This document shows, in pieces, positions 22,281 through 58,730 of a DNA stretch of 64,000 bases. Origin of the DNA: an uncultured virus (IMG/VR IMGVR_UViG_3300010998_000493). Its lineage: Duplodnaviria; Heunggongvirae; Uroviricota; Caudoviricetes. Each line of letters begins with the position of its first letter. Position 1 is the stretch's first letter. Below the pieces are notes generated by a model, which was not told the origin of the DNA, did not search any database, and was given only the letters and a program-made list of their open reading frames with translations. The stretch is taken from the IMG/VR virus record IMGVR_UViG_3300010998_000493. One strand, given 5' to 3'. A program made the position numbers and the translations under genes.

Positions 22281-22913
22281 TCAGAAGAAGCGGGCAATGG
22301 AACCAAGCACCTCAAAGACACGTATGATGCGTGAGATGCCGAACTCCTGTTCATCGTATTCTTGATTGATGGGGACATAACGTAGCATATCAGGTGTGGA
22401 GCCACGTCGCAAGATTTTGATGGTTCGTATGGTGTCAAGCACGACTGCATATATTTCTCCGTACTGAATATCATTGATGGAGCACTCATGCAGTGCAATG
22501 ATGTCACCATGATTGATTTTCGGTTCCATAGAATGGCCTGTGACGTTGCACCAAACAGAAGCCTTCTCAAAGCCCGGCACCAGGACATTACAAGCCGGAA
22601 CCGTCGTCTGATTGTTGAATATCTCGTTGAAGCCACCTATGAAGTCCACATCGTAATATGGTGTTCCTACAGCCGGATCAAAGCTCACCTTTGCTGGAAC
22701 ATTCTCTTCTTTCAGCATAGCACCTTTGCCTGTGAGCAACCAATCCGAAGACAACTTTTCGCATTTTGCAAAAAGAAGATCATAATCAATCGTGTCACGA
22801 GACAGCCAAGAACTGATGGTTGACGGAGCAACCCCAATCATCTTAGCAAACACAGATGGTTTACCATCGCTATAATGGGCAATTATTGCCTCAAGCCGTT
22901 CTTTTTTAGTCAT
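22281..22913 (-). CDS. Phage CI-like repressor (HTH plus S24 peptidase)
   Basis: FAKMIGVAPSTISSW HTH, WLLTGKG, VTGHSMEP..TIK S24 Ser/Lys dyad. Confidence 0.93.
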   Translation of the reverse strand: MTKKERLEAIIAHYSDGKPSVFAKMIGVAPSTISSWLSRDTIDYDLLFAKCEKLSSDWLLTGKGAMLKEENVPAKVSFDPAVGTPYYDVDFIGGFNEIFNNQTTVPACNVLVPGFEKASVWCNVTGHSMEPKINHGDIIALHECSINDIQYGEIYAVVLDTIRTIKILRRGSTPDMLRYVPINQEYDEQEFGISRIIRVFEVLGSIARFF

Positions 22914-22915
22914 AA

Positions 22916-23017
22916 TTTTGCAGTTTGCGAAAAATAATCTCGAAAACATTTTGCATTTTGCGAAACGTTTACTATCTTTGCAGGCGTATTCATTAAGTGA
23001 ACAGCGCGACAAAGGTA
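22916..23017. promoter_or_regulatory. Lysis/lysogeny switch: operators and opposed promoters
   Basis: TTTTGCA(G/T)TTTGCGAAA at 22916-22933 and 22949-22965; TATCTTTG (+, 22973-22980) and TACCTTTG (-, 23010-23017). Confidence 0.75.
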
Positions 23018-24004: not shown

Positions 24005-26059
24005 ATGGAGTATTACAATAAGACATTGTGCGTAACATTCAAGGAACTAACAGAGGGCGGTATCATAACTGGCCCAACACTTCTGAAGAACGTCCAGCGA
24101 GGCAACATCCAGTGTGCCAATCGTGGTGGGGGTGAAGGTTCAAAGGCTCTATATGTTTATGCGTCGCTCCCTATGAAGTACAGGATGATGTTTGAAGCTA
24201 AGTATGGCAAGCCCGCAGACGTACTGAAGGCTCAGGACCTGAAGGAGCGGGTAAAGGAAGACAGTAATGCCAGAGTATTTTATGAGGCTTTTGAATATGA
24301 TTTGAACGGTGTTCAAACGCGGTTGAGCCAGAAACTCATTGATGAGTACACGGGCAATGCCAGTGTGCTGAAGATGCTCTGGGAGCGCATGAACGAGCTT
24401 ACGGCGACGACCCACGCTCTTGGCGGTGGCAGGCGCGGCGACCTCTGGGACATCATTTTCAGACAAAGCGAGAAACTGAGAGAGGTTACCGGCCACACCC
24501 TGCCTAAGAACCTGGCGCGATTGAAGGAGAAGATGTCACATTATAAGAAAAGCGGATATGAGACTCTGATCAGTGGCAAGGTAGGCAATAAGAATACCCT
24601 GAAGATAACCGAGGATGCCGGACGCAGGCTGATAGCCCTGAAGCGCAGCCGCGTGCCGGTACTGACGGACAGCCAGATATTCGACACCTTCAATCAGGAG
24701 TGCGAGGTTAAAGGCTGGAAGCCATTGAAGAGCGTGAGAAGTCTGAAGACATGGCTGGAGAGTGCTGCCATTGAACCATTGTGGCATGATGCAGTATATG
24801 GAGAGATGAGTGCCCATCAGAAGTTTGACCGCAGGCACAAGACCCAGTTGCCTACGATGAGGGATGCCCTCTGGTATGGTGACGGCACGAAGATAAACCT
24901 CTACTACCGTGACGACGAAGGCAAGGTGAGGACTACGAGCGTGTATGAGGTCATCGACGCTGCAACGGAAATGTTCTTAGGCTTCTGCATCAGCGACAAC
25001 GAGGACTACGAGGCTCAATATATGGCTTACAGGATGGCTATTCAGGTGAGCGGTCACAAGCCCTATGAGATTGTGCATGACAATCAGGGCGGCCATAAGA
25101 AGTTGCAGAGCCAGAAGTTCTTTGACAAGCTCTGCCACATCCACAGAACCACCGCCCCCTACAACGGCGCTTCAAAGACCATTGAAAGCGTATTCGGACG
25201 TTTCCAAATGCAGGTACTTCATAAGGACTGGCGCTTCACCGGTCAGAACATCACGGCTAAAAAAGACAGCAGCCGTCCGAACATGGAGTTTATCGAGGCA
25301 AACAAGGATAAGCTCTACACCTACGACGAACTGAAAGCAGCCTACCTGAAGGCGCGAACCGAATGGAACGAGATGGCACACCCCGCCACCGGCGAGCAGC
25401 GCATAAAGATGTACGAGCAGAGCGAGAACCCCGAAACACCCGTAGTGACCGCGAGCGACATGATAGATATGTTCTGGGTACAGTGCGACCGCATGAGCAC
25501 CTTCACCAGTAGCGGCATAGAGATAACCGTGAAAGGTCAGAAACGTGTGTACGAGGTGATGAGTGAACCAGGAGTGCCCGATATAGAGTGGCGCAGGAAG
25601 CACACCTATCAGAAATTCGTGGTGAAATACGACCCCTACGACTTCCAGAGCATCCGCTTGTACTGGAAAGACAAGGCCGGCGAACTGAGGTTTGAGCGTG
25701 TAGCGGAACCCTATATCGTAATACATCGCGCCATTCAGGAGCAGACGGAAGGCGAGGCTACATTCATCAGGCAGCAGCAGAAAGCCATAGAGCAAAGCCG
25801 GATAGAGCGTCAGGTGACAGGCAGGCAGATAGAGTTTGCCGAGGGTGTGGCACCAGAGCAGAACGGTCTCAGCAGTCCAGGCTTGAAGGGAGTGACCGCA
25901 GATGTTCAGAGGCAGATAGACCGCAGGCTCAGAAAGTACGGCAAGGAACCGGAGGAACTAAGCCTTGGCAGGTTGACAAAGAAGGTGAGCAAAATGGACT
26001 GGAGCGAAGTGAGCGAGACAGTCACCATTGATATGAAGAAAGTGGCAGGTAAACTATAG
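24005..26059 (+). CDS. Mu-like DDE transposase (MuA)
   Basis: WYGDGT, HDNQGG, SKTIESVFGRFQ DDE triad; 684 aa. Confidence 0.93.
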   Translation: MEYYNKTLCVTFKELTEGGIITGPTLLKNVQRGNIQCANRGGGEGSKALYVYASLPMKYRMMFEAKYGKPADVLKAQDLKERVKEDSNARVFYEAFEYDLNGVQTRLSQKLIDEYTGNASVLKMLWERMNELTATTHALGGGRRGDLWDIIFRQSEKLREVTGHTLPKNLARLKEKMSHYKKSGYETLISGKVGNKNTLKITEDAGRRLIALKRSRVPVLTDSQIFDTFNQECEVKGWKPLKSVRSLKTWLESAAIEPLWHDAVYGEMSAHQKFDRRHKTQLPTMRDALWYGDGTKINLYYRDDEGKVRTTSVYEVIDAATEMFLGFCISDNEDYEAQYMAYRMAIQVSGHKPYEIVHDNQGGHKKLQSQKFFDKLCHIHRTTAPYNGASKTIESVFGRFQMQVLHKDWRFTGQNITAKKDSSRPNMEFIEANKDKLYTYDELKAAYLKARTEWNEMAHPATGEQRIKMYEQSENPETPVVTASDMIDMFWVQCDRMSTFTSSGIEITVKGQKRVYEVMSEPGVPDIEWRRKHTYQKFVVKYDPYDFQSIRLYWKDKAGELRFERVAEPYIVIHRAIQEQTEGEATFIRQQQKAIEQSRIERQVTGRQIEFAEGVAPEQNGLSSPGLKGVTADVQRQIDRRLRKYGKEPEELSLGRLTKKVSKMDWSEVSETVTIDMKKVAGKL

Positions 26060-26101: not shown

Positions 26102-26968
26102 ATGGAACAGAAACAGAAAGAACAGATTGCACAGCGTCTGAGGACGTATGTAGCGAAGTATCGCAGCCAAAACAAGGCAGTGGGCAGCCTGAAAGGAACA
26201 AGTGCCGGAACAGTGAGCAACATCCTGAACGGCAAGTGGGAAAACATCAGCGAAGACATGTGGAAGAAGATAGGCGACCAAGTGGGCACCGGCAGCAGTG
26301 AAGACGGCTGGCAGATAGTGGAGACAGGCGCCTATCAGGAAATCACCTACGCGCTGCATGATGCCCAAGAGTGGAAAAACGTGACATGGGTAGTAGGCGA
26401 AGCCGGATGCGGCAAGACCACGACTGCGAAACTCTATGCGGAGGAACACAAGGAAGTTTTTTACCTGCTATGTTCAGAGGACTTGCACAAGGGCGAGTTT
26501 GTGAGAGAAATTGCCCGTCTGATAGGCATCCGTACTGAAGGCTACACGGTCAGAGGATTGTGGACCGCCATCCTTGACAACCTCATTCAGATGGATGCGC
26601 CCCTTCTCATCTTCGATGAAGCAGACAAGCTGACCGAAAGCGTGTTCCACTACTTCATCAGCCTCTACAACAAACTGGAAGACAAGTGTGGCGTAGTATT
26701 CATGAGTACGGACTATATCATCAAACGCATTGAAAAGGGGCTGAGATTGCAGCGTCCTGGCTATAAGGAATTCTACAGTCGCATCGGCAGGAAATACTTT
26801 GAGCTGGATGATACAACCGCTAACGATGTCTATGCCATCTGCACAGCCAACGGGCTGAGAGACCGCAAAGACATAGATGAAGTGATTAAGGATGCGGAGG
26901 AATACGACTATGACCTCCGCAGAGTCAAGAAGAGCATCCACAGGGTAAAACGTTCTAAGGCTGCATAA
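26102..26968 (+). CDS. MuB-like AAA transposition ATPase
   Basis: N-terminal HTH, GEAGCGKT, LIFDEADK, DLRRV. Confidence 0.92.
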   Translation: MEQKQKEQIAQRLRTYVAKYRSQNKAVGSLKGTSAGTVSNILNGKWENISEDMWKKIGDQVGTGSSEDGWQIVETGAYQEITYALHDAQEWKNVTWVVGEAGCGKTTTAKLYAEEHKEVFYLLCSEDLHKGEFVREIARLIGIRTEGYTVRGLWTAILDNLIQMDAPLLIFDEADKLTESVFHYFISLYNKLEDKCGVVFMSTDYIIKRIEKGLRLQRPGYKEFYSRIGRKYFELDDTTANDVYAICTANGLRDRKDIDEVIKDAEEYDYDLRRVKKSIHRVKRSKAA

Positions 26969-28930: not shown

Positions 28931-29500
28931 ATGACGACAAGAAAGAAAAAGACCATTATTTCCGGCGTGACCCGTGAGGCAGCCGACGAAGCATTCGGCA
29001 TCTATGCTAAAGCCGATGCAAGCATCAGCAAGATTAACGCTGAGATTGAGCTGAAATGTGCTCAGATCCGTGACAAGTACGCAGATAGGTTGGCTCAGTT
29101 GAGTGAGGAACGTGATGAGGCTTTTGACAAGCTTCAGGCTTTTGCCACCGAGAACCAGTCAGAATTATTTGCCAAAAAGAAGAGTATGGAAATGGCTCAT
29201 GGTACAATCGGATTCCGCACTGGCACCCCGAAACTGAAAACTTTGAAAGGTTTCACCTGGGCGAGTGCACTGCAGCTTGCAAAGAAATTCCTTCCGGTCA
29301 CTTACATCCGCATGTCAGAAGACATAGCGAAGGACAGACTGCTTGCGGACCGTGACCTGAAAGAGACCGTGGTATATGACACCCCGACAGGTGAACCTCG
29401 GGAAGTGACCATGCGGGAAGCGATGGCCATATGTGGCATCCAAGTGACTCAAGACGAAACCTTCTATGTAGAACCAAAGAAAGAGAATACCGATAATTAA
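28931..29500 (+). CDS. gam: Gam-like host-nuclease inhibitor
   Basis: KKKSMEMAHGTIGFRTGTPKL..GIQVTQDETFYVEP. Confidence 0.85.
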   Translation: MTTRKKKTIISGVTREAADEAFGIYAKADASISKINAEIELKCAQIRDKYADRLAQLSEERDEAFDKLQAFATENQSELFAKKKSMEMAHGTIGFRTGTPKLKTLKGFTWASALQLAKKFLPVTYIRMSEDIAKDRLLADRDLKETVVYDTPTGEPREVTMREAMAICGIQVTQDETFYVEPKKENTDN

Positions 29501-31234: not shown

Positions 31235-31308
31235 CGGTAAGAGTCAAAGCAGAGTCAAAGTCTCGTGCTCGGCTCCAACCTCCACTCGGGACTTCGGTCC
31301 CGTTTTTT
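31235..31308 (+). ncRNA. Candidate ~70 nt small RNA convergent with the MuF-toxin 3' end
   Basis: TTTG(31201-31204), 19 nt spacer, TACTTTTG(31224-31231); internal hairpin; terminator CGGGAC-TTCG-GTCCCG-T6 (31287-31308). Confidence 0.7.
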
Positions 31309-32748
31309 ATTGATATACATAGCACTTTGATCCATGTTTAACAATGATCGTTCTCTCTTTGGAAGATTGATACAAATAGCCATTAATCGTTTTACTGATA
31401 GTCCTACGTGATACAAACGTGGGAATTTCCAACACTACATTGTCTGCTTGTTTTTTAGCCTCTTTGATTCTGTTGAGAATATCATTATGATATTTTTTCT
31501 TACTACCATTAGGCTTTATTCCCATCATGCTCTTCCCATCGAATAACATACCTCCGATGTAAAAGTCTGGGTTCTTGTTAGGGAATACCCCTGAAGGAAG
31601 TAATGTAGAGCGTAATGGCGCAAGAGTATAATCGCGTGGATCAAGTCTTGGCAACAGATAAACTTTTTTCCCTAACTTGTCGGCGATAAAAGCCCCCAGA
31701 CGTTTATTGTTCGCTACCTCATTGCTGCCATGATATGGGCTTGTCATCACTTTTCCGTTGTGCGATGGGCGGTATGTATCAACGCTTGGCGGTGGAACGT
31801 CAGAAGCCTTCCTTACTTTATCCGCTGCTTTTTTCATCTTGTTATCGATGAGATGGCAACTATAGCAATCCTTTTCTTGATTTATGAATAAGCCTTTGAG
31901 TTTATTCTTTAATCCACGGTTAGCGAAACACTGACTGCAGCTCTTCGGGAAGTACGGGTGTTTGTCTGAGAATGTATGTCCGTCCTTGCCCGGATTGTTT
32001 TCAAGTCCGCGTTGTGGCTGTGTAGGTTTCAAGTCAACGGGACGCACTACAGGCTCATCGGTAGCCTCCAGAGAGCATTTGCAGTTCCATCGGTCGCCAG
32101 GGTGATGCTCGTTCCAAAATGGATCATCGACGGGCAGCGTGAGCTTCATGCGCCAGTAGGCAGCGTGTGTACTTTCCGGTTCCGGTGACGTGGTTGGCAT
32201 CCAGCGCAGGTTTGGGAAGATGTCTTTGTTCCGTTCAAACTCCTGCCAATCGGCAGCAGCATGTGCTCTTATAACAGCCGTGTCGTACTCTGTGCGCAGC
32301 CATGCGCCCACCTGGTGGGAAGAGATAGAAGACACGTCACGCAGCCACTTGTCAAATGATTTGAGGTTGCCGCTGGCATCGAAGAGCTTTGCAGCCATGT
32401 CCTCACCCATCTGATGCACCTTGAAGGCTGCGAACACCTCGTTGGAGTGGCGCAGGTTTTGATAGAAGAGGCGGTCGTGTGTTGGCGGTGTCTTCGCCTG
32501 AGAAAGTCCCTCTACGGTTCCTTCATTGATGACACGCAGCACCTCACGCCAGATGGCCGGCTCAATCTCGTTTGAAGTGTCGAAGCCGTTATATACCTTT
32601 TTCAGGAACTGGCTGAGGACATTGGCATCAAAGCGGATGGAGTTTTCAAATCCGGTACCACTGCAACATGAGCAACCATGATGGTGCTCCCCATAATAGA
32701 GCGAGTCAATCAGAAGTCGGTGTCCGCCCCGGTGTTCGGGGCTATTCC
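31307..32748 (-). CDS. MuF minor head protein with C-terminal CdiA-like PD-(D/E)xK nuclease; probably translated by -1 frameshift from the portal gene
   Basis: LRTEYDTA, H..PVDDPFW..PGDRWNCKC MuF motifs; NPDF..FDGK..KKQADNVVLEI tip; frame is open back to the portal slippery site with no start codon before GTG 32542. Confidence 0.85.
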
Positions 32749-34050
32749 GAAAAAACGGTTCAAGATGTTTTTGAACGCTTTTCTATCAGTGCTCAAAGGC
32801 TGTTTCCCATCCGCGTTTGTTGAGTCGTTGAGTGCCTTCCGGACAGCCTCTTTGTTAGCCTGAGCCTCAGCCTTCTGTCGGTCGTAGTCCTTTGGCTTCT
32901 CTACACCAAAAGTCTCATAGAGCCAATCATCATCCATTGGCAGACCCATACTCTGAAGCTTCTGTACAATGTCGATTTGCTGGGAAGGAATGATCTTGTC
33001 TTTCTTGGCATAGACGAACTCTCCGCCATCTACATTGAAACCCAGCGCGGCAAAGATAGGTCGCATCTGATAGTTCAGAATGTCCAGGATAAACTCACGG
33101 TCATCCGTGTTCATGTCATCCTCTTCCTCCTTGTGGACTTCACCCAGCGCCTGTGTGCCTGTTTCCTTCGCATCTGTTGTGAGCGTGTTGCCCAGGACAC
33201 GAATGGAAATCTTGCTGTCCCAATAGTCAGCAAACGTCTTGTAGAGGTCGCTGGAGCCCGTCTTGTTGCCTGCCTCAATCAATGTCAGTTCGCTATCCTT
33301 CGGGTGGATATAGACGGCATTTGAGCCTTGTCTTCTGGCATCAGCAATAAGGCGCTTGCGTGCTGTTTCGTCACCTGCATCATAGGTGTATTCCCTTATA
33401 GGCATACCGAAGATGTTGCAGAACTGAGCCCAGTCTGCCATATCTCCACGTTTATAGAGAACAGCCGGCATGAGTTCCGCGAAGATGCCCAGTCCTCTCT
33501 CAGTGCCGACAAAGAGGCAGTTGGGGAAGTTCTCAATGGGTATTCCTTGCTGGTCGCCCTGGAACTTCAAGAGCTGCTTCTGCACGGGGTCATAGTGCTT
33601 ACGGTCAATAAGGTCATAGCGGATGTTCCCCTCTTCGTCGAGGTAGAACTGTACGAGGGTAAAGCCCCAGAACTCAGCCATGATGAAGTCCTTGCGCAGC
33701 TGCTTGAACCAAGGAGAACGCAGCTGTGCATTGATTGTGTCATCAGGTTCCCCGTTCCGCTGGAACTCAACAGGCAGGCGTGTGACTCCCCTGAGGCGCT
33801 TTGCCAGGACACCAGACAGGTGTAGGTCAAGCAAGGCGGACTCATACATGTCAAAAAGCCTTGTACGGTTGGAATAGTCGATGCTCTTTGCCAACGTGAC
33901 AGAACTCATGTAAGCGTTCATGTCGAACAGGAATATCTCCGGCATCTGCAGCACCACATCCGGCAATCTCTGGCCGTTGGGAACACGCATACCACCCTGA
34001 GTGATCTGCTTGGTGCTGTTCCTCTTATTTTTAATCTTATTCATAGTCAT
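32710..34050 (-). CDS. Portal protein (Mu gp29/DUF935-like)
   Basis: DLHLSGVLAKR, WAQFCNIFGMP, VLGNTLTT..GTQALGEVH. Confidence 0.92.
   Translation of the reverse strand: MTMNKIKNKRNSTKQITQGGMRVPNGQRLPDVVLQMPEIFLFDMNAYMSSVTLAKSIDYSNRTRLFDMYESALLDLHLSGVLAKRLRGVTRLPVEFQRNGEPDDTINAQLRSPWFKQLRKDFIMAEFWGFTLVQFYLDEEGNIRYDLIDRKHYDPVQKQLLKFQGDQQGIPIENFPNCLFVGTERGLGIFAELMPAVLYKRGDMADWAQFCNIFGMPIREYTYDAGDETARKRLIADARRQGSNAVYIHPKDSELTLIEAGNKTGSSDLYKTFADYWDSKISIRVLGNTLTTDAKETGTQALGEVHKEEEDDMNTDDREFILDILNYQMRPIFAALGFNVDGGEFVYAKKDKIIPSQQIDIVQKLQSMGLPMDDDWLYETFGVEKPKDYDRQKAEAQANKEAVRKALNDSTNADGKQPLSTDRKAFKNILNRFFGIAPNTGADTDF
32726..32755 (-). promoter_or_regulatory. -1 programmed ribosomal frameshift signal (portal to MuF)
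   Basis: T TTT TTC heptamer (32755-32749), 6-nt spacer, GCCCCG-AACAC-CGGGGC hairpin. Confidence 0.8.
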
Positions 34051-36483: not shown

Positions 36484-36619
36484 TGCAAATTTCGGCATAA
36501 ATGGGGAGAAAATGAAATGCAGTTTTTATGATGACTCCCTGTATGAATATCATTGCAAACATCTGATACTATGATAAAAACATCGTTTGTAAATATCGGA
36601 AAAACAGGCGAAATTTGCA
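36484..36619. promoter_or_regulatory. Divergent late-promoter region
   Basis: Inverted 11-mers TGCAAATTTCG (36484-36494) / CGAAATTTGCA (36609-36619), each a degenerate -7 box pointing into a late operon. Confidence 0.6.
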
Positions 36620-36635
36620 CCAAAAATCATACGAG

Positions 36636-37739
36636 ATGACAGTTAAGTATTTCAACATTATCCCCAGTGAGGGTAGCGCAACACTTCTGCTATATGGCGA
36701 CATCGGTGAGGGCCATAAAGTGGAGAGCGGTCGCATTGTGAGTGAACTGATAGCCATTCAGTCCCAGTATGGCAAGATAGATGTGCGAATCAACAGCCGA
36801 GGCGGTGATGTGTTCAGTGGTATGGCCATCTATAATGCCCTGCGCCAGTCGAAGAGTGACATTACTATATATATAGACGGAGTGGCAGCGAGCATCGCTG
36901 CTATCATTGCCCTGTGCGGAAAGCCCCTCTACATGAGTCCATATGCGAAATTAATGCTTCATAGTGTGAGCGGCGGTACATGGGGCAATGCCTCCGACTT
37001 GCGTCAGACTGCAGACCAGATGGAGCAGCTTCAGAAAGATCTGGCTAACATGATTGCCGGACGTTGTGGCATGAAGGCTACGGATGTTCAAGCGAAATAC
37101 TTCGATGAGAAAGACCACTGGATAGATGCCCAGGAAGCAGTAGAGATGAAACTGTGTGATGGCATCTATGACATGGCGACTACCGAAGAGCAGCCTAAAA
37201 CAGCAGAAGAGATTTATAACTTTTTTAATAACCGGCTCGTTTTCGAGCCACAAAATTCACAAGAAATGGCTTTAATAGATGACATCAAGGCTATCCCTTC
37301 TTTCAGTGACAAAGAGGATGCCGGTGCTATCGTAGCACACATCAAGGCGTTGGAGAACAAGGCAACGAAGGTTGACGCTCTCCAGCAGGCGAACGATGCT
37401 TACAAGACGCAGATTGCGGACTTGCAAGCAAAAGAAGTAGATGCTTTCCTTAACACGGCAGTGTCAGAGGGCAAGATCACCAAGGAGCAGATTCCCGCAA
37501 TGAAGAAGCTGATGATTAGTGACCGTGCAGCTGCTGAGGAACTGATCAACAGCATGAAGGTTCAGGGCGGTGCCCGCGCCGTTGACTTTATTGACCAGGG
37601 CGGTGCCAAGAATGCCTTTGAGGGCAAGACATGGGACCAGCTTGACAAGGAGAACCGCCTTGCCGACCTGAAAGCCCAGAACAAGGAACTGTTCTGTTCG
37701 CTCTACAAAGACAAGTTCGGTGTGGACTACAAAGAGTAA
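36636..37739 (+). CDS. ClpP-type prohead protease with scaffold C-terminus
   Basis: INSRGGDV, AASIA, LMLH ClpP motifs; coiled-coil tail. Confidence 0.92.
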   Translation: MTVKYFNIIPSEGSATLLLYGDIGEGHKVESGRIVSELIAIQSQYGKIDVRINSRGGDVFSGMAIYNALRQSKSDITIYIDGVAASIAAIIALCGKPLYMSPYAKLMLHSVSGGTWGNASDLRQTADQMEQLQKDLANMIAGRCGMKATDVQAKYFDEKDHWIDAQEAVEMKLCDGIYDMATTEEQPKTAEEIYNFFNNRLVFEPQNSQEMALIDDIKAIPSFSDKEDAGAIVAHIKALENKATKVDALQQANDAYKTQIADLQAKEVDAFLNTAVSEGKITKEQIPAMKKLMISDRAAAEELINSMKVQGGARAVDFIDQGGAKNAFEGKTWDQLDKENRLADLKAQNKELFCSLYKDKFGVDYKE

Positions 37740-37776: not shown

Positions 37777-38679
37777 ATGGCATTAAACAAACAAGTATGG
37801 TTGAACACCATCGTCGAGAACTTCTTTCCCGATGACAGCTTTGCGTCAAAGAGTATTGACGACTCCGTTTTCGTGAGCAACAAGACTGTGCACATCCCTA
37901 ACGCTGGAGCCCCTTCCGGTGTTGAGACTAACCGCACCCAGAAACCCGCGTCAGTGAACCAGCGTTCAGACAACGATCTGACCTACGACATGGATGAGCT
38001 GACCACAAACCCCATCTACATCCCTAACATCGACACGGTGGAGCTGAGTTATGACAAGCGTCAGAGCATTCTTATGAATGACCGTATGGAACTTAAGAAG
38101 CAAGCCCACCAGAACCTGCTTTACCGTTGGTTTGTCGCTGGTCAGGTCATTGAGACCGAGGGCGAGGCTCGTGAGGCCCACACATCAACCACTGCTACAG
38201 GCAATCGTAAGGCTCTGACAAAGGCCACCATCCTGAAACTGATGACCCGATTCAATCAGGATGACGTACCTGCAACTGGTCGCTACATCCTTCTGGATGC
38301 AGTCATGTATGCCGACTTGCTGAAAGACCTTACCGAGAAGGAGCTCAGCGCGTTCCTGGCATCTGCCAACGCCCAGAAGGGAATCTTGGGTAACCTCTAC
38401 GGCTTCGACATCATGCAGCGTTCACAGGTTCTGCGCCTGACATCAGCAAAAGCACTGCTGAAGTGGAGCCAGAACGCAGCAGCTACCGAGCTGGCAGCCG
38501 GTCTGGCTTGGCAGGAGCAGTGCGTGAGCCGTGCTATGGGCGAGACTAAGATGTTCGACAAAATGGATGATCCTACCTACTATGGTGACATCTATTCGTT
38601 CCTGACTCGCGTGGGCGGCAGCTATCGCCGTTACGACAAGAAGGGCATCTACGTTATTGCAGAGGCCGCAAGTGCTTAA
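37777..38679 (+). CDS. Major capsid protein
   Basis: Follows the protease; TVHIPNAG, DDVPATGRY, GNLYGFDI. Confidence 0.88.
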   Translation: MALNKQVWLNTIVENFFPDDSFASKSIDDSVFVSNKTVHIPNAGAPSGVETNRTQKPASVNQRSDNDLTYDMDELTTNPIYIPNIDTVELSYDKRQSILMNDRMELKKQAHQNLLYRWFVAGQVIETEGEAREAHTSTTATGNRKALTKATILKLMTRFNQDDVPATGRYILLDAVMYADLLKDLTEKELSAFLASANAQKGILGNLYGFDIMQRSQVLRLTSAKALLKWSQNAAATELAAGLAWQEQCVSRAMGETKMFDKMDDPTYYGDIYSFLTRVGGSYRRYDKKGIYVIAEAASA

Positions 38680-38698: not shown

Positions 38699-39892
38699 AT
38701 GCGACTACCAAGAGTAAAAATTCTGTTTCTAAACGGGCTTCTTGGAACCGTCGGGGACAGTCCCGACGGTCTCTTGGCCCTCATTTGCGGTGCAGCTGCT
38801 GTGGAGAACAAACTGGTGCTGAACAGCGTTTACACTCTTTCGAGTGTTGACGATCTCTCTGTCATGGGTGTGACGGAAGATAACAATGCCAAACTTTACA
38901 AGCACGTCAAGGAGTTTTACGATGAGGCAGAGAATGGAACGAAACTCATTGTCTATCCTGTAGCGACTACAACGAAAGCCACTGACATCTGCGACTATAC
39001 GAAGACAGCAGCGGGGTATGCCCGCCACCTGATTACGAGTCAGAACGGCGCATTGCGCGGTGTCTTTATAGCCGGAGTAAACAGCGGCAGCACGACGGCG
39101 AGCACCAATGGTCTTGACCCCGATGTGTTTACTGCCCTGCCCAAAGCCCAACAGCTGGCAGAGTGGGTAACTACAGAGTTATATGCCCCGCTGCTTATCG
39201 GCATTGAAGGCAGGAACTATGATGCGACGAAGACGCTGAAAGACCTGAGTGAGGAGACATATAATCGCGTATGCGTTGTTGTCGGTGACACTGTTTCTGG
39301 CAGTAATGACGCTGCTGTGGGCACATTGATGGGTCGTATTGCGAGCATCCCCGTTCAGCGCAACATAGGCAGGGTGAAAGACGGCAGCCTGTCACCAACT
39401 GAGATGTTCATCGGCAACCAGAAGGTTGACGAGAGTGGCAACGCAGTAGCCGGTATCTTTGAGAAGGGCTACATTGTTCCCCGCAAACATGTAGGCAGAA
39501 GTGGTTATTTCTATGCCGACGATCCTATGGCATGTGACCCGACAGACGACTATGCCCACATTGCCAACCGCCGTGTGATTGACAAAGCCTATCGCATTGC
39601 CTATGACACAATGCTGGAAGAGCTTCTTGACGAAATAGACCTGAACGAAGACGGCACCATGCATCATGCTGTAGTAAAGAGCTGGCAGCAGACATTGGAG
39701 AATGCCATTAACCGGCAGATGACCGCCAACGACGAGCTGAGCGCGACGGATGGCGAAGGCTGCCAGTGTTACATTGACGAGAAACAGAACGTGGCATTGA
39801 CCTCAAAGATTGTGGCGACACTGAAGGTACGTCCTCACGGCTACGGCCGCTACATTGACGTGAACTTAGGTCTCCAAGTAACAACCGCTTAA
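38699..39892 (+). CDS. Tail sheath protein (DUF2586-like)
   Basis: NIGRVKDG, NRRVIDKAYR; synteny. Confidence 0.85.
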   Translation: MRLPRVKILFLNGLLGTVGDSPDGLLALICGAAAVENKLVLNSVYTLSSVDDLSVMGVTEDNNAKLYKHVKEFYDEAENGTKLIVYPVATTTKATDICDYTKTAAGYARHLITSQNGALRGVFIAGVNSGSTTASTNGLDPDVFTALPKAQQLAEWVTTELYAPLLIGIEGRNYDATKTLKDLSEETYNRVCVVVGDTVSGSNDAAVGTLMGRIASIPVQRNIGRVKDGSLSPTEMFIGNQKVDESGNAVAGIFEKGYIVPRKHVGRSGYFYADDPMACDPTDDYAHIANRRVIDKAYRIAYDTMLEELLDEIDLNEDGTMHHAVVKSWQQTLENAINRQMTANDELSATDGEGCQCYIDEKQNVALTSKIVATLKVRPHGYGRYIDVNLGLQVTTA

Positions 39893-40667: not shown

Positions 40668-40846
40668 CGGATGCCGATGTCCCAGGTGCCGAAGATGGCG
40701 ATGTGTTGTTCCTAAACACACTCCTGAGGTATTACATGCACATTGACCCTGACACACTGTGTGACGAAGAATGGGCGTGGACTATCCGGTATCTGATTGA
40801 CATCCGCAAGGAAGAATCGAAGGCAAACAATGGACAGCGTACTTAA
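40655..40846 (+). CDS. -1 frameshift extension of the tail chaperone (gpGT-like)
   Basis: A AAA AAG at 40655-40661; -1 frame reads [30 protein letters not shown]. Confidence 0.85.
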
Positions 40847-42593
40847 GTTTCTTATCAAGCTGCAGGCAGACGAAGGCAATGTCTTGAACGTTGCCAGACG
40901 AACCTCACAGCAGCTGGACGAAATATCCCGTAAGGCGACTTCTACAGGGACTCGCTTACGGGAAGCCTTCTCTTTCTCTAATTTCAAGGGTTCCCTGATG
41001 TCCCTGCCTGGCATGGAGTTCCTAACAAACCCCTATACTCTCATTAGTGCAGGTGTGGGAGCTGTCACGGCTCTTGGAGCACAGGCAGAACAGACAAGCG
41101 TCGCTTTCACAACCCTTGTGGGCAGTGAAGAAAAGGCGGCAGGGATATTAAAGGAAATCAATGACTTTGCCGCAAAGACCCCCTACGGCAATTTGGATCT
41201 GACAGACAACGCCAAAACCATGCTGAACTTTGGCGTGCAGGCAGACAAGGTGAACGGCTATCTGCAACAGTTAGGCGACATAGCTGCTGGTGATAAAAAC
41301 AAACTGGGCAGTCTCTCCCTTGTATTCGGTCAGGTAGCCAGTGCCGGCAAGATGAGCGGACAGGATCTGTTGCAGTTCATCAATGCAGGCTTCAACCCTT
41401 TGAAGGAACTGGAGAAGATGACCGGCAAAACATACGCCGAACTCCAGGACATGATGAGCAAGGGGCAGATAGGCTTTGATGCTGTCGCAGCGGCCATCAA
41501 TCATGCTACCAGTACCGGCGGTGCCTTCGAGGGAATGAGCGACAAGCTGAGCCAGACAATCAGCGGAAAGTTCTCAACCTTGGCAGGCAACATCCAGCAG
41601 GCAGCCGTTGACATGTTCAACGAGATTAAGCCCATTGTCAATGACATCATGGACTTTTTCTTGGCTATTGTCCCACCGATAGCCTCAGCAATCAAAGGCA
41701 TCTTCTCTGTTATAGCCGGAGTTATCGGATTTATTGTCAGGTGGAAAGAAGAGCTTGGTTTATTGGCCGCCGTGGTGGCTGTTGGTACCATTGCCTTCAA
41801 TGCCCACGCCATTGCAATAGGAGCCGTTGCAGCCATTCAGGGTGTTGTTACCATTGCGACGAAGGCGTGGACAGCAGCGCAATGGCTGTTGAATGCAGCG
41901 CTGAACGCCAACCCAATAGGAATTGTGATAACAGTCATTGCAGCCCTCGTTGCAGCAGTTGTCTATTGCTGGAACAAGTTTGCCGGTTTCCGCGCCTTCA
42001 TCCTTACGATGTGGAACACAATGAAAGGCTTCGGTAACATTATCAAGGAATATGTCATTGACCGCTTGAAGACGTTGCTGAGTGGCATCGGCAAAATCGG
42101 AGAGGCATTTGCTAAGCTTTTCAATGGTGACTTCAAAGGTGCATGGTCAAGTGCCGTCAATGGTGTCAAGGACATCTCAGGCATCACAAGTGCAGAGAAA
42201 GCCCTGAAGTCAACTAAGCAGCTCGCTGGAGGTGTTGCCGCTGAATACGATAAGAACTACCGCATCGAGAGCCAGAAGCAACAGCAGAAAGACACGAAGA
42301 AAGAAGCTGCTATTGCAACACCAGGCACAAAGGGCAGTTCGGAAGAGGTTGTGCTCAATGCAGCCAGTGGTGGGAAGAGTGGCAAGGGTGGAAAAGGCGG
42401 TAAGGGAAACAAGACCGCAGAAGCCTTGGCAACAGGTGGAATAAGAAACACCAGTATCACCATGAACATCGGCAAGTTCTTTGATAATATCTATGTGACA
42501 ATGGCTGACAGGACAGACACGGCAGAGCTTGAACGTATCGTGCTCCAAAGCATGAATAGGGCTCTTGCCATAGCAACAAGTACAGAACGATGA
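40830..42593 (+). CDS. Tape measure protein
   Basis: [32 protein letters not shown]..; Ala/Gly rich. Confidence 0.92.
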
Positions 42594-48437: not shown

Positions 48438-51400
48438 ATGGCAAAAGTTATTGACGAGAAGATAGAGAGCAAGAACACCCCGTGGGAAGGCTATGCGGGT
48501 AGACGTGTGGAAGAGTACATTAAAACTGCACTTGATAACAAGGCCGGAGAGTTTTACCATGATGAGACGAAGGACATCGTCCTTGTCTTTGCCGGTGCGG
48601 CCGAGCGAGACGAGTATCTTGACCCTGAGACAACGGAGGAGCGCCGCAGTGAGCTGCTGCTGGGAAGTTTTGATGCTCCAGCGAACTATACGGCAGAAAT
48701 ATCAATGGCTACGCCAATGAGTAATGTCATCCTTGCAGGCAAGACTGGCAACTATGTGGATTTCACTTTTGACATCAAGAGCCGCACGGGAAGCAGTACG
48801 GGTGAATCTGTCCTTGTCACCTACACCATCAACAATGCCGGCAACATCAAGAAGATAACACAGATATACGCTGCGGGAACAAGTGTACACTTCCTTGTTG
48901 ACCAATATCTCAGCGCGGGTAACAACAACATCAGTGTTCACGTCACCGGCCGCAATACGCTCGTAAGTACAATCGCCGCAGTCAACTATACTGTTGTCGC
49001 TTTGGAACTGACGAGTGACTTTGACATCAGCCAGCCTGTGAGACAAGGCGACTATCTGGCAATTCCTTACACTCTGTCGGGTACCGGCGTGAAATATCTG
49101 GAATGGTATATTGACGGTGAGCTGCAACAAGACATAGATACGATTACAGACTTAAAGGTCAACCGTATAAAGAATATCGACACGACTGAATTGCCAGTCG
49201 GCAAACATAGCGTGCAAGCCAGGGCGTACTTTGCATCTTCCGGAACCAATTATTACGGTGCCACATTGTATTTTGACTTCGTCCTGACTCCGGCTGACGA
49301 TATATGGCAAGAGGATGTCACTTACATTCTCCTTTCATTTGTTCTCGACGCTCCGGTGACAAGCACAATCAGTATAGAGGCGACACAATATAAGGAGTAT
49401 TCCTTCGGCATTGCTGTATATGACAGTCGCTCACGTTCACTCGCATTGACTATCTCTGACAACGGACAGCAGATACAAGACCTCACGATGGTCCCTGACG
49501 TGGCACGGCAGATACCATACATACCCACGACGACAGGAAATCATGTGCTGACATTCTCATGTGATGAAGCTACGGTATCTATCAACGCATCGGTAGTTAG
49601 CGGTGACGTGGACATTAACGAGGTAACGGAGGATGTCCTGCTTAAGCTCTCTGCCAAGGGCAGGAGTAACAGTGAGGTGGACCCTGCCAAATGGGTGTAT
49701 GGAAACATCACAACTACGTTCAACGGTTTTAGCTGGAATGAGCAAAGCGGCTGGAATAACGGTGTCTTGACCATACCGGCAGGGGCAAGCATAGACATCA
49801 GTTTTGCGCCTCTGGGCGGCAACCCTGTTACAAGAGGGCGCACTATCGAGATAGACTACGAGACTGCGAACATAGAGAACGATGATGCAAGCGTTATATC
49901 TCTTGTCAACAGCAACACCGGTGCAGGACTTGATATCACGGCATCCTCGGCTAAATTGCAGTCAAGCGGCGGTGCCAATGTGAACACCAAGTACAAGGAC
50001 GGTGACCGCGTGCATCTTGCTTTCATCATCAACAAGACTACAGGCGATAGCGGAAGGCTGATGTTCATTGTCAACAACGGTATATTGGAACGCGCCGCCA
50101 GCTTTGCAGCTACAGACGTGTTCCAGGTTGGAGACAATCTGCACATAGGTTCTGACGGCTGTACTGTTAAGATACACTCCATCCGTATATACGATAAGGC
50201 ACTTACTGCCGACGAGGCTTTCTGTAACTATGCCGTTGACTCCGACAATCTCATTGAAATAGCAAGCAACAATGACATACTTAATGAAAGCACCGGCCTG
50301 ATAGATGCGGACAAGGTCAACGCCAAAGTGCCGATTATGATCATCACCGGTGATATGCAGCCGATATTTGACGCTACGAGCAAGGACGCTACCGTCTATG
50401 TGGATTTGGAGTATCGTAATCTGCAGGACCAGTCCAAGAATTTCACAGCCACCCATGTCAGGATGAGACCGCAGGGTACTTCATCATTGGGCTATCCAAG
50501 GAAGAACCTCCGCCCTTACACTGCCTCGAAATACGGTTGCGTGATGTATGATGCCAATGGCGAAGTGATAGAGAACGGCCTGTATGCTTTCAAAGACGGT
50601 GCGCAGCCTGTCAACTGCTGGACGCTTAAAGCGGACTATGCGGAATCGTCAGGCTCTCACAATACCGGCGTTGCACGTCTGTGGAATGAACTGATGTACA
50701 ACTGCCAGCTCAACGGTGAATTTGCCTTGCGCACCAACGCACAGAAGGCGGCACTGCAGGCAGGCTATAACTATGACGTGCGTACTACGGTAGACGGATT
50801 TCCCATCGTGGTATTTCACAGGCAGACCGTGAACTCGGAACTTGTTTGCCTGGGGCAATACAACTTCAACAACGACAAGTCCACGGAGAAGGTGTTTGGC
50901 TTTACCGACATCCCCGGCTTTGACAACAAAGACGTGCAGTGTTTTGAGTTTTTGGCGAATGAGAGTCCTATCTGTCTGTTTGACGACATATCCGAATTTG
51001 ACACCAAGTGGAGTGACGCTTTTGAAAGCCGTTATCCCGACACAAAGACACCGGACCTCGTTCCTCTGAAGACCCTTGCGACATGGATTAACAGCTGTAA
51101 GGAAAATCAGGAGAAATGGAACGAGGAGAAAGCGAGCCATTTTGATTTGCCCAAACTGGCAGCATACTATGTCTATCTGATGCGCTTCGGGGCAGTTGAC
51201 CAGACTGTGAAGAACGCCATGATAACGACAGAAGACGGCGAACACTGGTTCTTCATCAACTACGATAACGACACCATCCTTGGTATTGACAACATCTCCA
51301 CTGTGCTTAACGCATGGAACTATGACCGCAGCTCACGGAAAGCAGGCGGAGCATATTACTACGCAGGACACAACTCTGTACTATGGAATTGCTTTGAGGC

Positions 51401-54400
51401 AGACCCTGAATGTATGGCATTGGCGCGCGAGGTGGACAACGCCCTGTATAGTGCCGGACTGACCTATGCCAATATGGTACGGATGTTTGACGAAGAGCAG
51501 TGCGATAAATGGTGCGAGCGCATTTATAACGACAACGGCATATATAAATACATCCAGCCTTTCAAGGAGAAGGGTTCTGCCGTCCTCTACATGCTGCAAG
51601 GCAGCCGTAAGAGTTACAGACGTTGGTGGTTGCAGCATCGCATGGACTTGTATGATGCGATGTGGGCTACAGGCGCTTTCCGGAATCGTATCGTCCGTTT
51701 TATTGCTGAAGGCGCAGAAGGCGGCACGTTTAGGATTACTTCCGCCTCTGACACATATTTCGGTTACGGCATCAACAGCGTGATACAAGAGTCCGGCGTG
51801 AGAGTGGAAAAGAACGCCGTTCATGATTTTACTATCAGCAGAACGCTTGCCATCGGAGACCCTGTCTCTGTATATAACGCCAACAATATATCCAGGATTG
51901 ACCTCAGTGATTTTGCTGCGAAGATGACGACTTTGTACATCAACCAGGCTGTAGGCAATGACGGGAAAAGTTCCCTGAAGAGCCTTATCCTCGGTGACGG
52001 GACGACAGAGAATGTCGTGTTTACGGAAATCGGCGGTCTGAGCGCTATCACGGGGATTGAAGAAATTGACATAAGGAATTTCAAGGTAGTCACTAACGTG
52101 GAACTTTCGGCACTGCAAAATCTGCATATCTTCAAAGCTGCAGGCAGCGGACTTACTTCATTCGTTCCTGCGACAGGTGTGACACTGACGGAAGTGTCGC
52201 TCCCTGATGTATTGCAGAGCATTGTCCTTAACGGTGCTGATGTGTCATCGCTGACTTACACTCCGGCTACGGCATTACGGAGCGTGTCATTGAGAAATGT
52301 CACCGGCGCATGGGATGCCAGAGGGTTTGTCTTGGCATGGCTTGAGATGCTGTCAGACAATGACAGATTCGCCGAAGCGGAATTGACGCTGGCTGGTATT
52401 GACTGGAGAATGACACCGACGCAGGCCATTGCCATGGGTAAGATTGGTGTAAAGAATTACAGAGGCAAGATAACATTGCCCAGCCTGTCGGAGAGCGAGT
52501 ATCTCCAACTGGTGGAACTGTATGGTGAAAACGTGTTCAAGCCGGGCAGCAGTTTTGTCATCGACGCTCCGGCAGGCATCATACTCAGAGGACCTGAGAA
52601 ACTTGTTGAAGGAACTTCAAACAAATATAATGCCATCGTCTTTCCTGCAAGCGAGACTCCTGCACTGTATCTGTTATACTCAGGAACCACTCTGATAGAA
52701 AGACAGCAAGACAGTGAGACGGGAGAATATTTCCGCCAATACAATAATGTGCGTCTCTGGGAGTCTACAGGTGTAATTGAAACGACAGGAACTATAAGTT
52801 CAAGTTTCAGTCTGAGGGTAAGGGCGCAAATAAGCGGTACGACAACTTATTCAGATTACATCACTTTCCAAGTTGTCAGATACACATATCCTGATGAAAG
52901 CTCAACGTCCGTGCAAGGTGAAAACAAACTCTCAGCTACGGGTGAATATCAGTATGGCATCGTCTTTAATACAGAATTTAGCGCAGACATCGCCAGTTTG
53001 CAATGGTCGCTTGTCGCTCCAAGTGGCGAAGGTGACAACGTCGTCTCCATCAAATCGGGCCAGACGGAAACGCAAGAGACAACACTTGTCGTCGGCGATG
53101 AATTTGACACGGCGGAAACCATCAAGAGCCCTGTCACATTGCAATGTCTCATCAGGTTCTATGGGCCGGACGGTGAGACTATAGGCAAAGAATATACCGT
53201 GGAGAAAAGTGTCACTGTCAGGCGTGCGAGCGGAATTGACTGCGTGTATAGAGGAGCTTACGGTTCGCCAGTGACCTTTTTCGATTCGAGTGCGCGACAA
53301 TATGTGAAGAGTATGGAGATAGACGGCGAGCCGGTAGAGATAAAAAATACTTATCCGTTCACGGACGCAAAACTTCACGAAGTACATATTGAGCTGAAAA
53401 ACAATACGATTATCCCTTCCAATTTTTTTTATTACTGTACAGGTCTGGTCTCTTTCTCTATTGCTAATACTTTCAAAAGTATAAGCCAAAGAGCCTTTTT
53501 TTATTGTATCAATCTTACAGAAGTCATTATTCCCGACTCGGTGACAACTATAGGCAGTAGTGCTTTCTCTTCCTGCTCTGCTCTTACGAGTATAACAATA
53601 GGGAGCGGAGTGACAAGCATTCCAGGGGATATGTTGCAAGGGTGCACAAAACTTACCAGTATAGAAATCCCAGATTCAGTAAATTATATCAGAAATAGCG
53701 CGTTCGCCGGCTGCTCAAATTTAAAGAGAATCTTAATAGGTCGTGGGGTGAATACTATTGAATCAAGTGCTTTCTATGCTATTGAAGCCTTAGAGGAAAT
53801 AGTTGTGTCTTCGGAGAACAACAATTACAGTTCGGCCGACGGAGTTCTTTTCAACAAGGACAAGACAACCTTAATAAAATGTCCACAGGGTAAATCTGGG
53901 GTTTATACCATTCCAAACTCTGTAACGGGCATTGTAACATATGCGTTAATGGACTGCGATTTACTTACAGAACTCGTTATCCCTGATTCTGTAACGACAA
54001 ACATTAGCAATGATCTTATTCGTTCAGATTCGTTAAAAAAACTAACAATAGGTAGCGGTGTTTCACGTTTAGCAAATATTAATTTTAGATCTTTAGAAGA
54101 ATATATAGTATCTTCGGAGAACAACAATTACAGTTCGGCCGACGGAGTTCTTTTCAACAAGGACAAGACAACCTTAATAAAATATCCACAGGGTAAATCT
54201 GGGGTTTATACCATTCCAAACTCGGTGACAACTATAGGCATTAGTGCTTTCTATTCCTGCTCTGCTCTTACGAGTATAACCATTCCAAACTCGGTGACAA
54301 CTATAGGCGGTAATGCTTTCTCTTCCTGCTCTGCTCTTATCCTGCTCTGCTCTTACGAGTATAACCATTCCAAACTCGGTGACAAAATTTGATGGAGGAC

Positions 54401-55230
54401 GGGTGTTTATGGATTGCTCTGCTCTTACGAGTATAGTGATTCCCGACTCAGTGACAGATATGGGATACGAGGCTTTTTACGGATGTTCAAACCTGACAAG
54501 CGTGACGATTGGCAGCGGTGTGTTCTTATTAAGTAATAATGTTGGTGTAAAAAACTACGATTCTGATGCTTTCAAAGGATGTCCAAATATCACAAGTATA
54601 AGTGTATCTGCAGAAAACACTGTATATGACTCGCGAAACAACTGCAATGCTATCATTCGCAAATCAGACAATACACTTGTCGTCGGCTGTAAAGGAACAG
54701 TTATACCTGATTCGGTTGTTAGTATCGGTGAACGATCTTTTTATGGTTCTAAAATTACGAGCATAGAAATTCCTAACTCGGTGACAAGTATTGAAAAAGG
54801 AGCATTCTCTCAGTGTACATCATTAACGAGTTTAGTCATAGGCAGCAATGTAACGAGGATAGAATATGAAGCATTTTATCATTGTGCAATCACGAGTGTA
54901 ACCATTCCTGACCCGGTGAACACTATAGGCGACCGTGCGTTCATAGATTGCAGTAATCTCACGAGTGTAATAATAGGCAGCGGAGTGACAAGCATAGGTC
55001 ATAGCGCTTTTTCTTACTGTCCAAATCTTGAAACAATAACCATCAACCTTCAGGTAGCTCCGAGTTATCAGTTCGGAACTAACTCATCAACCGCAGGCTA
55101 CAACAAGCGCACGTCTGGAACGAACAGACTGTACGTGCCTGCTAATGCCACGGGGTATGAGTCAGGAGACTGGGTGGCTTACCTGTGCAACAGCAACTAT
55201 GGCGGATTCACGTTATCGAAAACCTTATAA
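48438..55230 (+). pseudogene. Giant tail/receptor-binding protein (Ig/LamG-like, CotH-kinase-like and BspA-type LRR domains), frameshifted by a 16-bp duplication
   Basis: ORFs 48438-54392 and 54313-55230 join into 2258 aa if one TCCTGCTCTGCTCTTA copy (54324-54355) is removed; QGTSS..YPRKN, TLKADYAESS, YDNDT and IPDSVTTIG..AF repeats. Confidence 0.85.
53808..54223 (+). repeat. 113-bp direct repeat within the LRR region
   Basis: 53808-53920 vs 54111-54223, one mismatch (G53881/A54184). Confidence 0.92.
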
Positions 55231-58709: not shown

Positions 58710-58730
58710 TAATAACTAAATATAAACAGT

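Follow-up and report, generated by a model that had tools for sequence, protein, structure and literature searches.

In a 64,000-nucleotide (nt) stretch of DNA from an uncultured tailed virus (IMG/VR record IMGVR_UViG_3300010998_000493; Caudoviricetes), hereafter called the window, the portal gene is followed on the minus strand by a MuF-toxin gene whose frame is -1 relative to the portal and overlaps its 3' end. A slippery heptamer and a GC hairpin are located in this overlap. As far as the sequence can tell, a canonical programmed -1 frameshift very probably acts here and makes a fusion of portal and MuF-toxin of 914 amino acids (aa). Such a frameshift had been proposed from the letters of the window by an earlier, model-made annotation (the sequence-only reading). 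The present analysis supports it, because the signal, the hairpin at its spacing, a start-less coding -1 frame and one-frame fusions in relatives were all found; the phase of the heptamer and the constraint at synonymous sites agree with it too.

Frameshift signal at the portal-MuF junction

The portal gene (34050-32710, minus strand) encodes a Mu-type protein of 446 aa, which matches PF06074 Portal_Mu (E 4.5e-78; 263.4 bits against a curated cut-off of 23.9) and phrog_113 (portal). It lies in a head module beside the terminase, with TerL (phrog_38) and a gp36-like adaptor encoded upstream of it. The 3' end of the gene reads AAC CGT TTT TTC GGA ATA GCC CCG AAC ACC GGG GCG GAC ACC GAC TTC TGA. 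In this segment the heptamer T TTT TTC (U UUU UUC in the RNA; 32755-32749) stands in the X XXY YYZ phase of the portal frame, and it is followed by a 6-nt spacer, GGAATA (32748-32743), and then by a candidate stimulatory hairpin with six GC pairs and a 5-nt loop, GCCCCG-AACAC-CGGGGC (32742-32726), predicted by folding. The first arm of the stem occupies 32742-32737, the loop 32736-32732 and the second arm 32731-32726, and all of these elements are on the minus strand. The heptamer, the spacing and the hairpin had been placed by the sequence-only reading correctly, base for base.

A short way before the heptamer, TGA TAG (32788-32783, minus strand) closes the MuF frame, which is open from 32782 to its stop at 31307-31309 and reads ..FFRNSPEHRGGHRLLIDSLYYGEHHHGCSCC..FDANVLSQFLKKVY.. 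in translation. The portal stop TGA (32712-32710, minus strand) overlaps a CTG of the MuF frame (CTGA), and in some relatives an ATG or GTG is found at or adjoining the position of the portal stop. The first ATG, GTG or TTG of the MuF frame in the window is GTG 32542, which is 240 nt into the open frame. The open frame, its closure, its first start and its translation are thus as the sequence-only reading had described them, and the fusion length of about 914 aa that it gave is also right: 434 residues from the portal and 480 from the MuF frame, with the predicted junction ..NRFFRNSPEHR...

We also searched the region for other elements. An Rfam scan of 32500-32900 with E values up to 1 returned one chance miRNA match, at 19 bits against a gathering score of 65. 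No terminator or promoter was found in a scan of 32300-33100, and an intrinsic terminator is ruled out on either strand, the T run preceding the hairpin rather than following it.

Conservation of the slippery heptamer

The open MuF frame was searched against phage records by tblastn, and a homolog alignment of 30 sequences (A1) was made. The tblastn matches start at residue 8, upstream of any start codon, and they fall under both portal and MuF annotations. For example, the Hankyphage record BK010646.1, with a MuF just 48% identical, reads CGT TTT TTC GGG AAA GCCCCG-GGGAGAGA-CGGGGC at the same place.

The first sample comprised 162 rows, namely the window, 2 Hankyphage-type records and 159 loci retrieved with alignment A1 (79 from viral contigs and 80 from genomes). 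T TTT TTY in portal phase within the open -1 frame is present in 153 of the 162 rows (TTTTTTC in 147 and TTTTTTT in 6), and in 149 of the 150 rows having a portal homolog upstream. Nine rows are without the in-phase heptamer: eight have no upstream portal homolog (remnants or locus edges), and in the ninth, L062, the T run and an FFRTRP reading are present and the portal frame is broken upstream.

Dereplication (under 95% identity) left 103 junctions, whose MuF core identity to the window ranges from 49.5% to 93.1%. The codon before the two Phe codons ends in T at every one of them (103 of 103), over seven amino acids (CGT 36, AGT 27, GGT 19, TCT 11, GAT 4, GCT 3, CAT 2 and AAT 1). Across the portal genes of these junctions, the background frequency at which those amino acids are encoded with a third-position T is 18-37%. 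At all 103 junctions the first of the two Phe codons is TTT, which makes up 375 of 1918 Phe codons (19.6%) in the same genes. Since NNT and TTT are kept at synonymous sites, selection acts on the nucleotides of the heptamer and not on the peptide alone.

A separate observation concerns three loci, L108, L123 and L158 (around 2520-2570). They contain the heptamer, the hairpin and the last 30-63 portal codons before MuF, with no portal homolog upstream, and are probably rearranged prophage remnants.

A hairpin kept at nearly constant spacing

In the 42 nt after the heptamer, the mean minimum free energy (MFE) of the 103 junctions is -15.1 kcal/mol, compared with -7.05 kcal/mol for control windows from the same portal genes, of which 192 of 5681 are as stable. 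A hairpin with at least five GC pairs is found at all 103 junctions but at only 161 of 8053 control positions (2%), and one that starts 4-6 nt after the heptamer at 102 of 103 junctions against 48 of 8053 controls. Together with the second sample described below, there are 218 sites, and the hairpin starts 2-7 nt after the heptamer in 215 of them and at exactly 6 nt in 154.

The stem itself is far from uniform. Over the 218 sites there are 45 distinct 5' arms, such as GCCCCG, GGACAGG, GGGCGAC, AGGGCAAGT, CCCCCTTTA, ACCACTCG, AGGGCTGG and GGGCGTTG. Diverged loci have unlike stems at equal distance, for example ACCACTCG/CGAGTGGT in L080 and AGGGCTGG in L170, and a GGACAGG/CCTGTCC stem is found in L171-L173 and L177. 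As sequence evidence for the hairpin, different stems at a fixed spacing are stronger than the covariation within the main clade. In the MAFFT alignment the closing pair is GC in 55 rows, UA in 9, AU in 1 and CG in 1, and an outer pair is CG in 17 and AU in 8; the proportion of paired cells (81.1%) and the covariation score exceed those of all 500 shuffles.

A signal not conserved in related phages had been named by the sequence-only reading as a reason to give up the frameshift. The opposite was found, with the heptamer in 149 of 150 rows and the hairpin at 103 of 103 junctions.

One-frame fusions and reverse layouts in relatives

Portal and MuF also occur as one protein. Two PHROG families, phrog_35074 (890 profile positions) and phrog_220, span both domains, and among longer portal homologs there are 13 one-frame proteins of 818-862 aa (P0122-P0134) with Portal_Mu and Phage_Mu_F, most of which include a toxin domain. 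One of the 13 reads ..DFFFRHP..LLYYDHACH.., so that the portal runs straight into what is the -1 reading in the window; its DNA has a T9 run, and the hairpin is absent. In Porphyromonas phage phage007a_Bg4 the product named "portal protein" is likewise a fusion in one frame, 853 aa long, and its junction is 92.8-100% identical across all 10 Porphyromonas phage records found.

Several one-frame relatives, among them Porphyromonas phages, keep the signal. In L174 and L175, cgT TTT TTC is followed after 6 nt by a strong hairpin at the domain junction, and the -1 frame meets a stop 25 codons (L174) or 21 codons (L175) after the heptamer. The one-frame loci L201, L203, L223 and L254 have TTTTTTC, a hairpin 5-6 nt on and a -1 stop 24-29 codons on. 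L202 is a weaker case, with TTTTTTC, a stem 3 nt on and a -1 stop after 6 codons. Judging from these layouts, a slip in the signal-keeping one-frame relatives would give a short portal.

A fusion alignment (A3) was used to collect 80 more distant loci, which form the second sample. The MuF frame is -1 in 51 of them, the portal's own frame in 14 long open reading frames (ORFs) plus 3 short ones, and +1 in 4, with 8 left unassigned. The heptamer is in phase in 49 of the 51 -1 loci. The ORF was of sufficient length for a scan of the junction in 14 of the 17 same-frame rows, and the scan gave TTTTTTC in 5, a T9 run in 3, A AAA AAG in 2, A AAA AAA in 1, T TTT TTG in 1, T TTT TTA in 1 and no heptamer in 1; two of the 14 have a weak heptamer only (A AAC CCA and C CCA AAC), and there the hairpin is absent. 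The conserved trait seems to be that two products are made, regardless of which frame encodes the longer.

Other frame relations were observed as well. In L200, L209, L216 and L219 of the second sample, MuF is in the +1 frame; no in-phase heptamer is recorded for these four, whose junctions were not inspected. In two diverged viral contigs, L167 and L168 (around 1560-1700), the MuF frame is +1 (or -2) with respect to the portal, and a T6 run (CTT TTT TCG in the portal frame) is followed by a CCTTGGG/CCCAAGG hairpin 7 nt downstream, with an additional in-phase T TTT TTT upstream in L167. A +1 or -2 shift, two successive -1 shifts and decay are all possible for this layout. In Winogradskyella phage Peternella_1 (MT732475.1; L162 2456-2600) the MuF frame is -1, the 3' end of the portal gene contains in-phase A AAA AAA runs, and a Cys-rich conserved HYNTECCGH precedes the annotated GTG start. 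No notable hairpin was found after these A runs at its portal end, and transcriptional slippage on its A10 run is an alternative there. Flavobacterium phages pippi8-1 and FPSV-S1 have ordinary separate portal and MuF genes.

The MuF frame is coding but mostly lacks a start of its own

In the window, 69 codons of the MuF frame without any ATG, GTG or TTG (32543-32749, minus strand) follow the heptamer. This start-less stretch shows coding-type codon conservation and predicted helices, and it encodes the linker RNSPEHRGGHR, the conserved LLIDSLYYG, a Cys/His cluster and the first helices of the MuF fold.

For comparison among relatives, 100 of the 103 junctions could be anchored on a conserved motif, [ILVM][DN]x[LIVT]Y (LIDSLYYG in the window), just past the portal stop. 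At 77 of these 100 junctions the open MuF frame contains no ATG, GTG or TTG up to and including the motif. The first start codon after the motif comes a median of 28 codons later (range 11-66), and 4 junctions have none within 90 codons. The entropies of the motif codons at positions 1/2/3 are 0.68/0/1.87, 0.78/0/0.96 and 0/0/0.96. The codons therefore vary at position 3 and not at position 2, which is the mark of translation in the MuF frame. The starts chosen by gene callers scatter among the homologs (MWREVL, MLRV, MRFD, MDGAVRF, MIDTLYYG, MDSLYY and MYYG), and the sequence upstream of them is still similar.

The AlphaFold2 (AF2) model of the open frame has a mean confidence (pLDDT) of 81.3; residues 1-47, the linker, are unconfident, and the model is confident from about residue 50. 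It has helices at residues 53-64 and 75-94, and the second of these includes the GTG of the called ORF, at residue 81. Since there is no start codon before the middle of a helix in the window, a complete MuF could be made only as part of the fusion. A contig of a relative from an RNA library, X15, has a 6-nt insertion at 32650, in frame for the start-less MuF extension, which is expected if this stretch is translated. An independent start of MuF, another finding that the sequence-only reading had set against itself, did not emerge: a conserved start of its own is not seen, with 77 of 100 junctions lacking one.

Proposed mechanism

We propose the following course of events. When ribosomes decoding the portal arrive at U UUU UUC, two Phe-tRNAs would occupy their P and A sites, and the GC hairpin 6 nt downstream would then sit at the mRNA entrance and hold the ribosomes back. 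Some ribosomes would slip back by one base (UUU-UUC to UUU-UUU) and continue in the MuF frame. In this way two products could be made, the 446-aa portal, which ends 12 codons past the slip site, and a protein of 914 aa with portal residues 1-434, the linker, the full MuF domain and the CdiA_C-type toxin domain. The frequency of the slip would set how many of the twelve portal subunits carry MuF. In favour of a slip, U_UU.U_UU.Y falls in the class H_HH.U_UU.Y, which PMC4066793 lists with the most efficient motifs in E. coli.

In solved portal structures the C-termini point into the capsid, and therefore the fusion would place MuF and the toxin within the head, at the portal. The portal of phage Mu is C-terminally processed, and on this ground we speculate that MuF is released by the prohead protease (36615-37736). 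A wider idea, offered tentatively and with more doubt than belief, is that portal-MuF recoding serves tailed phages generally as a cargo-loading device. It would set the ratio of plain to cargo-carrying portal, a few of the twelve subunits would carry MuF-toxin into the procapsid, and the protease would free the cargo for ejection with the DNA. What is conserved would then be the pair of products and not the order of the frames, and relatives would therefore keep heptamer and hairpin whether the long form is in the 0 frame or in the -1 frame.

Counter-evidence and alternative explanations

Several points weigh against the frameshift. Folded as a single sequence, the window hairpin has an MFE of -17.8 kcal/mol and a z score of -1.79, with 10 of 200 shuffles equally stable, so on its own it is modestly unusual and not decisive. 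The main clade gives modest covariation, since its five core GC pairs are almost invariant (six rows are misaligned); only 2 pairs have double changes, a count reached by 499 of 500 shuffles. The stem also codes in two frames, and protein constraint could keep it constant. The loci are phylogenetically linked and joint probabilities overstate their independence, although the direction of the effect is unambiguous. The efficiency of the motif in E. coli may not hold in Bacteroidota. A covalent link to the portal would block ejection of the toxin unless it is cut, and the cut is so far hypothesised. The slip itself we infer from sequence, and likewise its frequency, the location of the fusion in the virion and any later cleavage or ejection. 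Finally, 23 of the 100 anchored junctions do have a start codon (ATG in 20) no later than the conserved motif, in many cases one that overlaps the portal stop; in these, free MuF by translational coupling is possible, and this may be the ancestral state.

The last point leads to the strongest of the alternatives, which we nevertheless regard as unlikely: free MuF would be made by termination and reinitiation at the portal stop, with a near-cognate start in the window (the CTG of CTGA, or the next ATT), and heptamer and hairpin would serve for something else, such as pausing. The annotated MuF ATG of Hankyphage overlaps the portal stop (ATGGTGA), some called homologs, for example MIDTLYYG, begin with an M where the window has its CTG, and 23 junctions have the canonical starts just described. 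However, the other 77 have no canonical start there, and the codons vary freely (CTG/CTA; ATT/ATC/ATA), so a near-cognate start is not conserved. Reinitiation also leaves unexplained the NNT/TTT constraint, the hairpin with 45 different arms at a fixed spacing, the bias of -1 over +1 frames (51 to 4) and the presence of the signal in one-frame fusions.

It is much less probable that MuF simply starts at GTG 32542 as a 411-aa protein, with the upstream open frame a leftover and heptamer and hairpin coincidental. This GTG is the first ATG, GTG or TTG of the frame, and database entries hold the 411-aa form (P0002, P0004 and P0005). Yet conservation in the 69 upstream codons follows a coding pattern, their product aligns with profile positions of the MuF family (phrog_19194 from residue 53), the GTG falls inside a confident helix, and the called starts of homologs scatter.

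Slippage of RNA polymerase on the T run, giving transcripts one base longer or shorter, has an equally slight chance. Homopolymer runs cause transcriptional slippage according to the review PMC5009743, and some relatives have longer runs (T9 in L164, A10 in Peternella_1). A run of 6 is short for slippage of the polymerase, and a codon phase kept in 149 of 150 rows and a hairpin 6 nt on matter to the ribosome, not to the polymerase. The RNA-library contig X15, which differs from the window at 62 positions, spans 32749-32755 without an indel; being a contig of a relative and blind to rare forms, it shows neither transcription of the window locus nor absence of slipped forms.

That a one-base indel, by assembly error or gene decay, split a single portal-MuF gene is hardly credible: one-frame portal-MuF genes do occur in relatives, but 149 of 150 loci, drawn from many assemblies as well as from isolate genomes and cultured phages, have the two-frame layout, and contigs of three other DNA studies (X2, X6 and X7) span 32749-32755 without an indel, which also speaks against the assembly indel that the sequence-only reading had named as a danger.

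Relation to known systems

The proposed frameshift at the portal-MuF junction resembles that of the tail assembly chaperone gpG/gpGT, a -1 frameshift reportedly found in lambda and most long-tailed phages, in work attributed to Levin in 1993 and to Xu, Hendrix and Duda in 2004. In both cases ribosomes would slip by -1 at a conserved place close to the 3' end of a structural gene and read on into the next, start-less ORF, so that a short and a long product are made, in a fixed ratio in gpG/gpGT. In contrast to gpG/gpGT, the genes here are portal and MuF, of the head interior, the long product has a toxin domain, and a hairpin is kept at 6 nt; moreover, gpG/gpGT is an assembly factor, whereas the long portal-MuF form would be a virion component. 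The one-frame loci L174, L175, L201, L203, L223 and L254 are rather like tau/gamma of E. coli dnaX, the 0 frame being long, while a -1 slip at a heptamer with a hairpin would soon end translation and yield a short form, as with gamma. The window differs from dnaX in that it is the long form that would come from the slip, its heptamer is U UUU UUC and not A AAA AAG, and the products are phage structural proteins and not a polymerase subunit.

Hankyphage-type phages, in which the signal is present, count with the most common temperate phages that infect gut Bacteroidales of humans and animals. If the frameshift is real, it is a new and very widespread case of phage recoding and the first at the portal, the unique vertex for DNA entry and exit. 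Hundreds of MuF genes would then be annotated with arbitrary internal starts, the real product in most such phages being a portal fusion of about 900 aa.

The gene itself has the organization of MuF polymorphic toxins (Jamet et al. 2017, PMC5576092; Bxa, PMC11699363): an N-terminal MuF and a variable C-terminal toxin, encoded in a prophage head module immediately after the portal gene. In these papers MuF toxins are treated as separate proteins, unlike in our reading of the window, and the word "frameshift" is absent from the main texts of both. A protein of the MuF family at the portal inside the head, in low copy, is a known arrangement; here the link would be covalent and produced by recoding. 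The one-frame genes (phrog_35074, phage007a_Bg4 and P0122-P0134) have the same two domains in the same order with a ..RFF.. junction motif, and they differ from the window, which needs a -1 shift. If the frameshift is real, it would also explain how MuF proteins and their toxin cargo enter the head in low copy, a point left open in PMC5576092 and PMC11699363. If, further, the cargo-loading idea is true, portal fusions are the form in which abundant gut phages (those of the Hankyphage type and possibly of the Bxa type) make and package their MuF toxins, which are then annotated with the wrong start and the wrong size.

In PMC10885494 (PRFect), MuF-like and VIP2 genes are mentioned as a fusion, at a different junction. 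The word "portal" is absent within the first 300,000 characters of the review PMC5009743, and nothing relevant was found in PMC10367356, PMC8008677, PMC13313380 and 10.1101/2025.10.02.679949. We found no published description of portal-MuF recoding in a search that left subscription journals and supplements outside.

Domains and neighbours of the MuF-toxin gene

The ORF called by gene callers from the GTG (31307-32542, minus strand; P0002 is the called form) encodes 411 aa with a MuF domain and a C-terminal CdiA_C toxin-type domain. Phage_Mu_F (PF04233, the family of MuF and SPP1 gp7) is matched at open-frame residues 159-238 (32069-32308, minus strand; 34.6 bits, cut-off 29.6), and CdiA_C (PF18451) at residues 403-481 (31340-31576, minus strand; 32.7 to 36.3 bits, cut-off 26.6). 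The MuF protein, encoded directly downstream of the portal, also matches phrog_19194 and phrog_23416 with E values of 1e-89 to 1e-92, and the phrog_19194 match begins at open-frame residue 53. The C-terminal domain is predicted to be of toxin type from its CdiA_C-type match, and a sequence search of the PDB with this domain found no solved relative (best E 0.63). The sequence-only reading took it for a nuclease, for which this CdiA_C match is the sole support. Among the MuF homologs the N-terminal MuF is shared, and the C-terminal ends are PF18451, PF18798 or without a named domain.

The Cys/His-rich cluster after the LYYG motif (32620-32700, minus strand; open-frame residues ~28-55) reads GEHHHGCSCC, and relatives have CxCC, CxCGxxHxH and similar patterns there. 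It looks like a small metal-binding knuckle in the linker between portal and MuF; the AF2 confidence for this cluster is low (pLDDT under 50).

An 82-aa ORF without a Pfam match directly follows the toxin gene (31194-30946, minus strand). As an immunity gene it is doubtful: among 31 loci with a CdiA_C-type end it is present in 2, the window and an identical copy, and homologs of it follow MuF genes with other C-terminal domains in L004, L009, L010, L082, L099 and L102. Because it is so rarely found with the CdiA_C-type end, it tracks the phage lineage and not the toxin. This was the small ORF tested, and no cognate immunity gene was identified.

Prophage context

The genes of the source are those of a Mu-like transposable myophage prophage. 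Among named relatives, those closest to it are Prevotella/Segatella prophages together with the group of Bacteroides phage p00 (Hankyphage). Its genes include a repressor (22284-23012, minus strand), a MuA-type transposase (24005-26056), a MuB-type protein (26102-26965) and Gam (28931-29497), the last three on the plus strand. A gpG-like virion morphogenesis protein (30939-30325) is encoded on the minus strand, as are MuF-toxin, portal, the gp36-like adaptor, TerL and a small helix-turn-helix (HTH) protein up to 36562. On the plus strand follow the head maturation protease already mentioned (36615-37736; phrog_2976, E 2.2e-88), the major head protein (37777-38676), the sheath (38699-39889), the tape measure (40797-42590) and the endolysin (55959-56435).

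After the baseplate genes there are two plus-strand ORFs of 1984 aa (48438-54389) and 305 aa (54313-55227), which match only PHROGs of unknown function (phrog_14959, phrog_18805 and phrog_35892) and probably encode tail fibre or receptor-binding proteins. Hankyphage has a diversity-generating retroelement. Past the lysis genes, at 58371-59813 on the plus strand, an ORF resembling the toxin of a toxin-antitoxin system (phrog_3066) stands with a 361-aa regulator, which combines an HTH with a metalloprotease-like part (phrog_2439 and phrog_87), and the two may form a toxin-antitoxin or defence pair at the end of the prophage.

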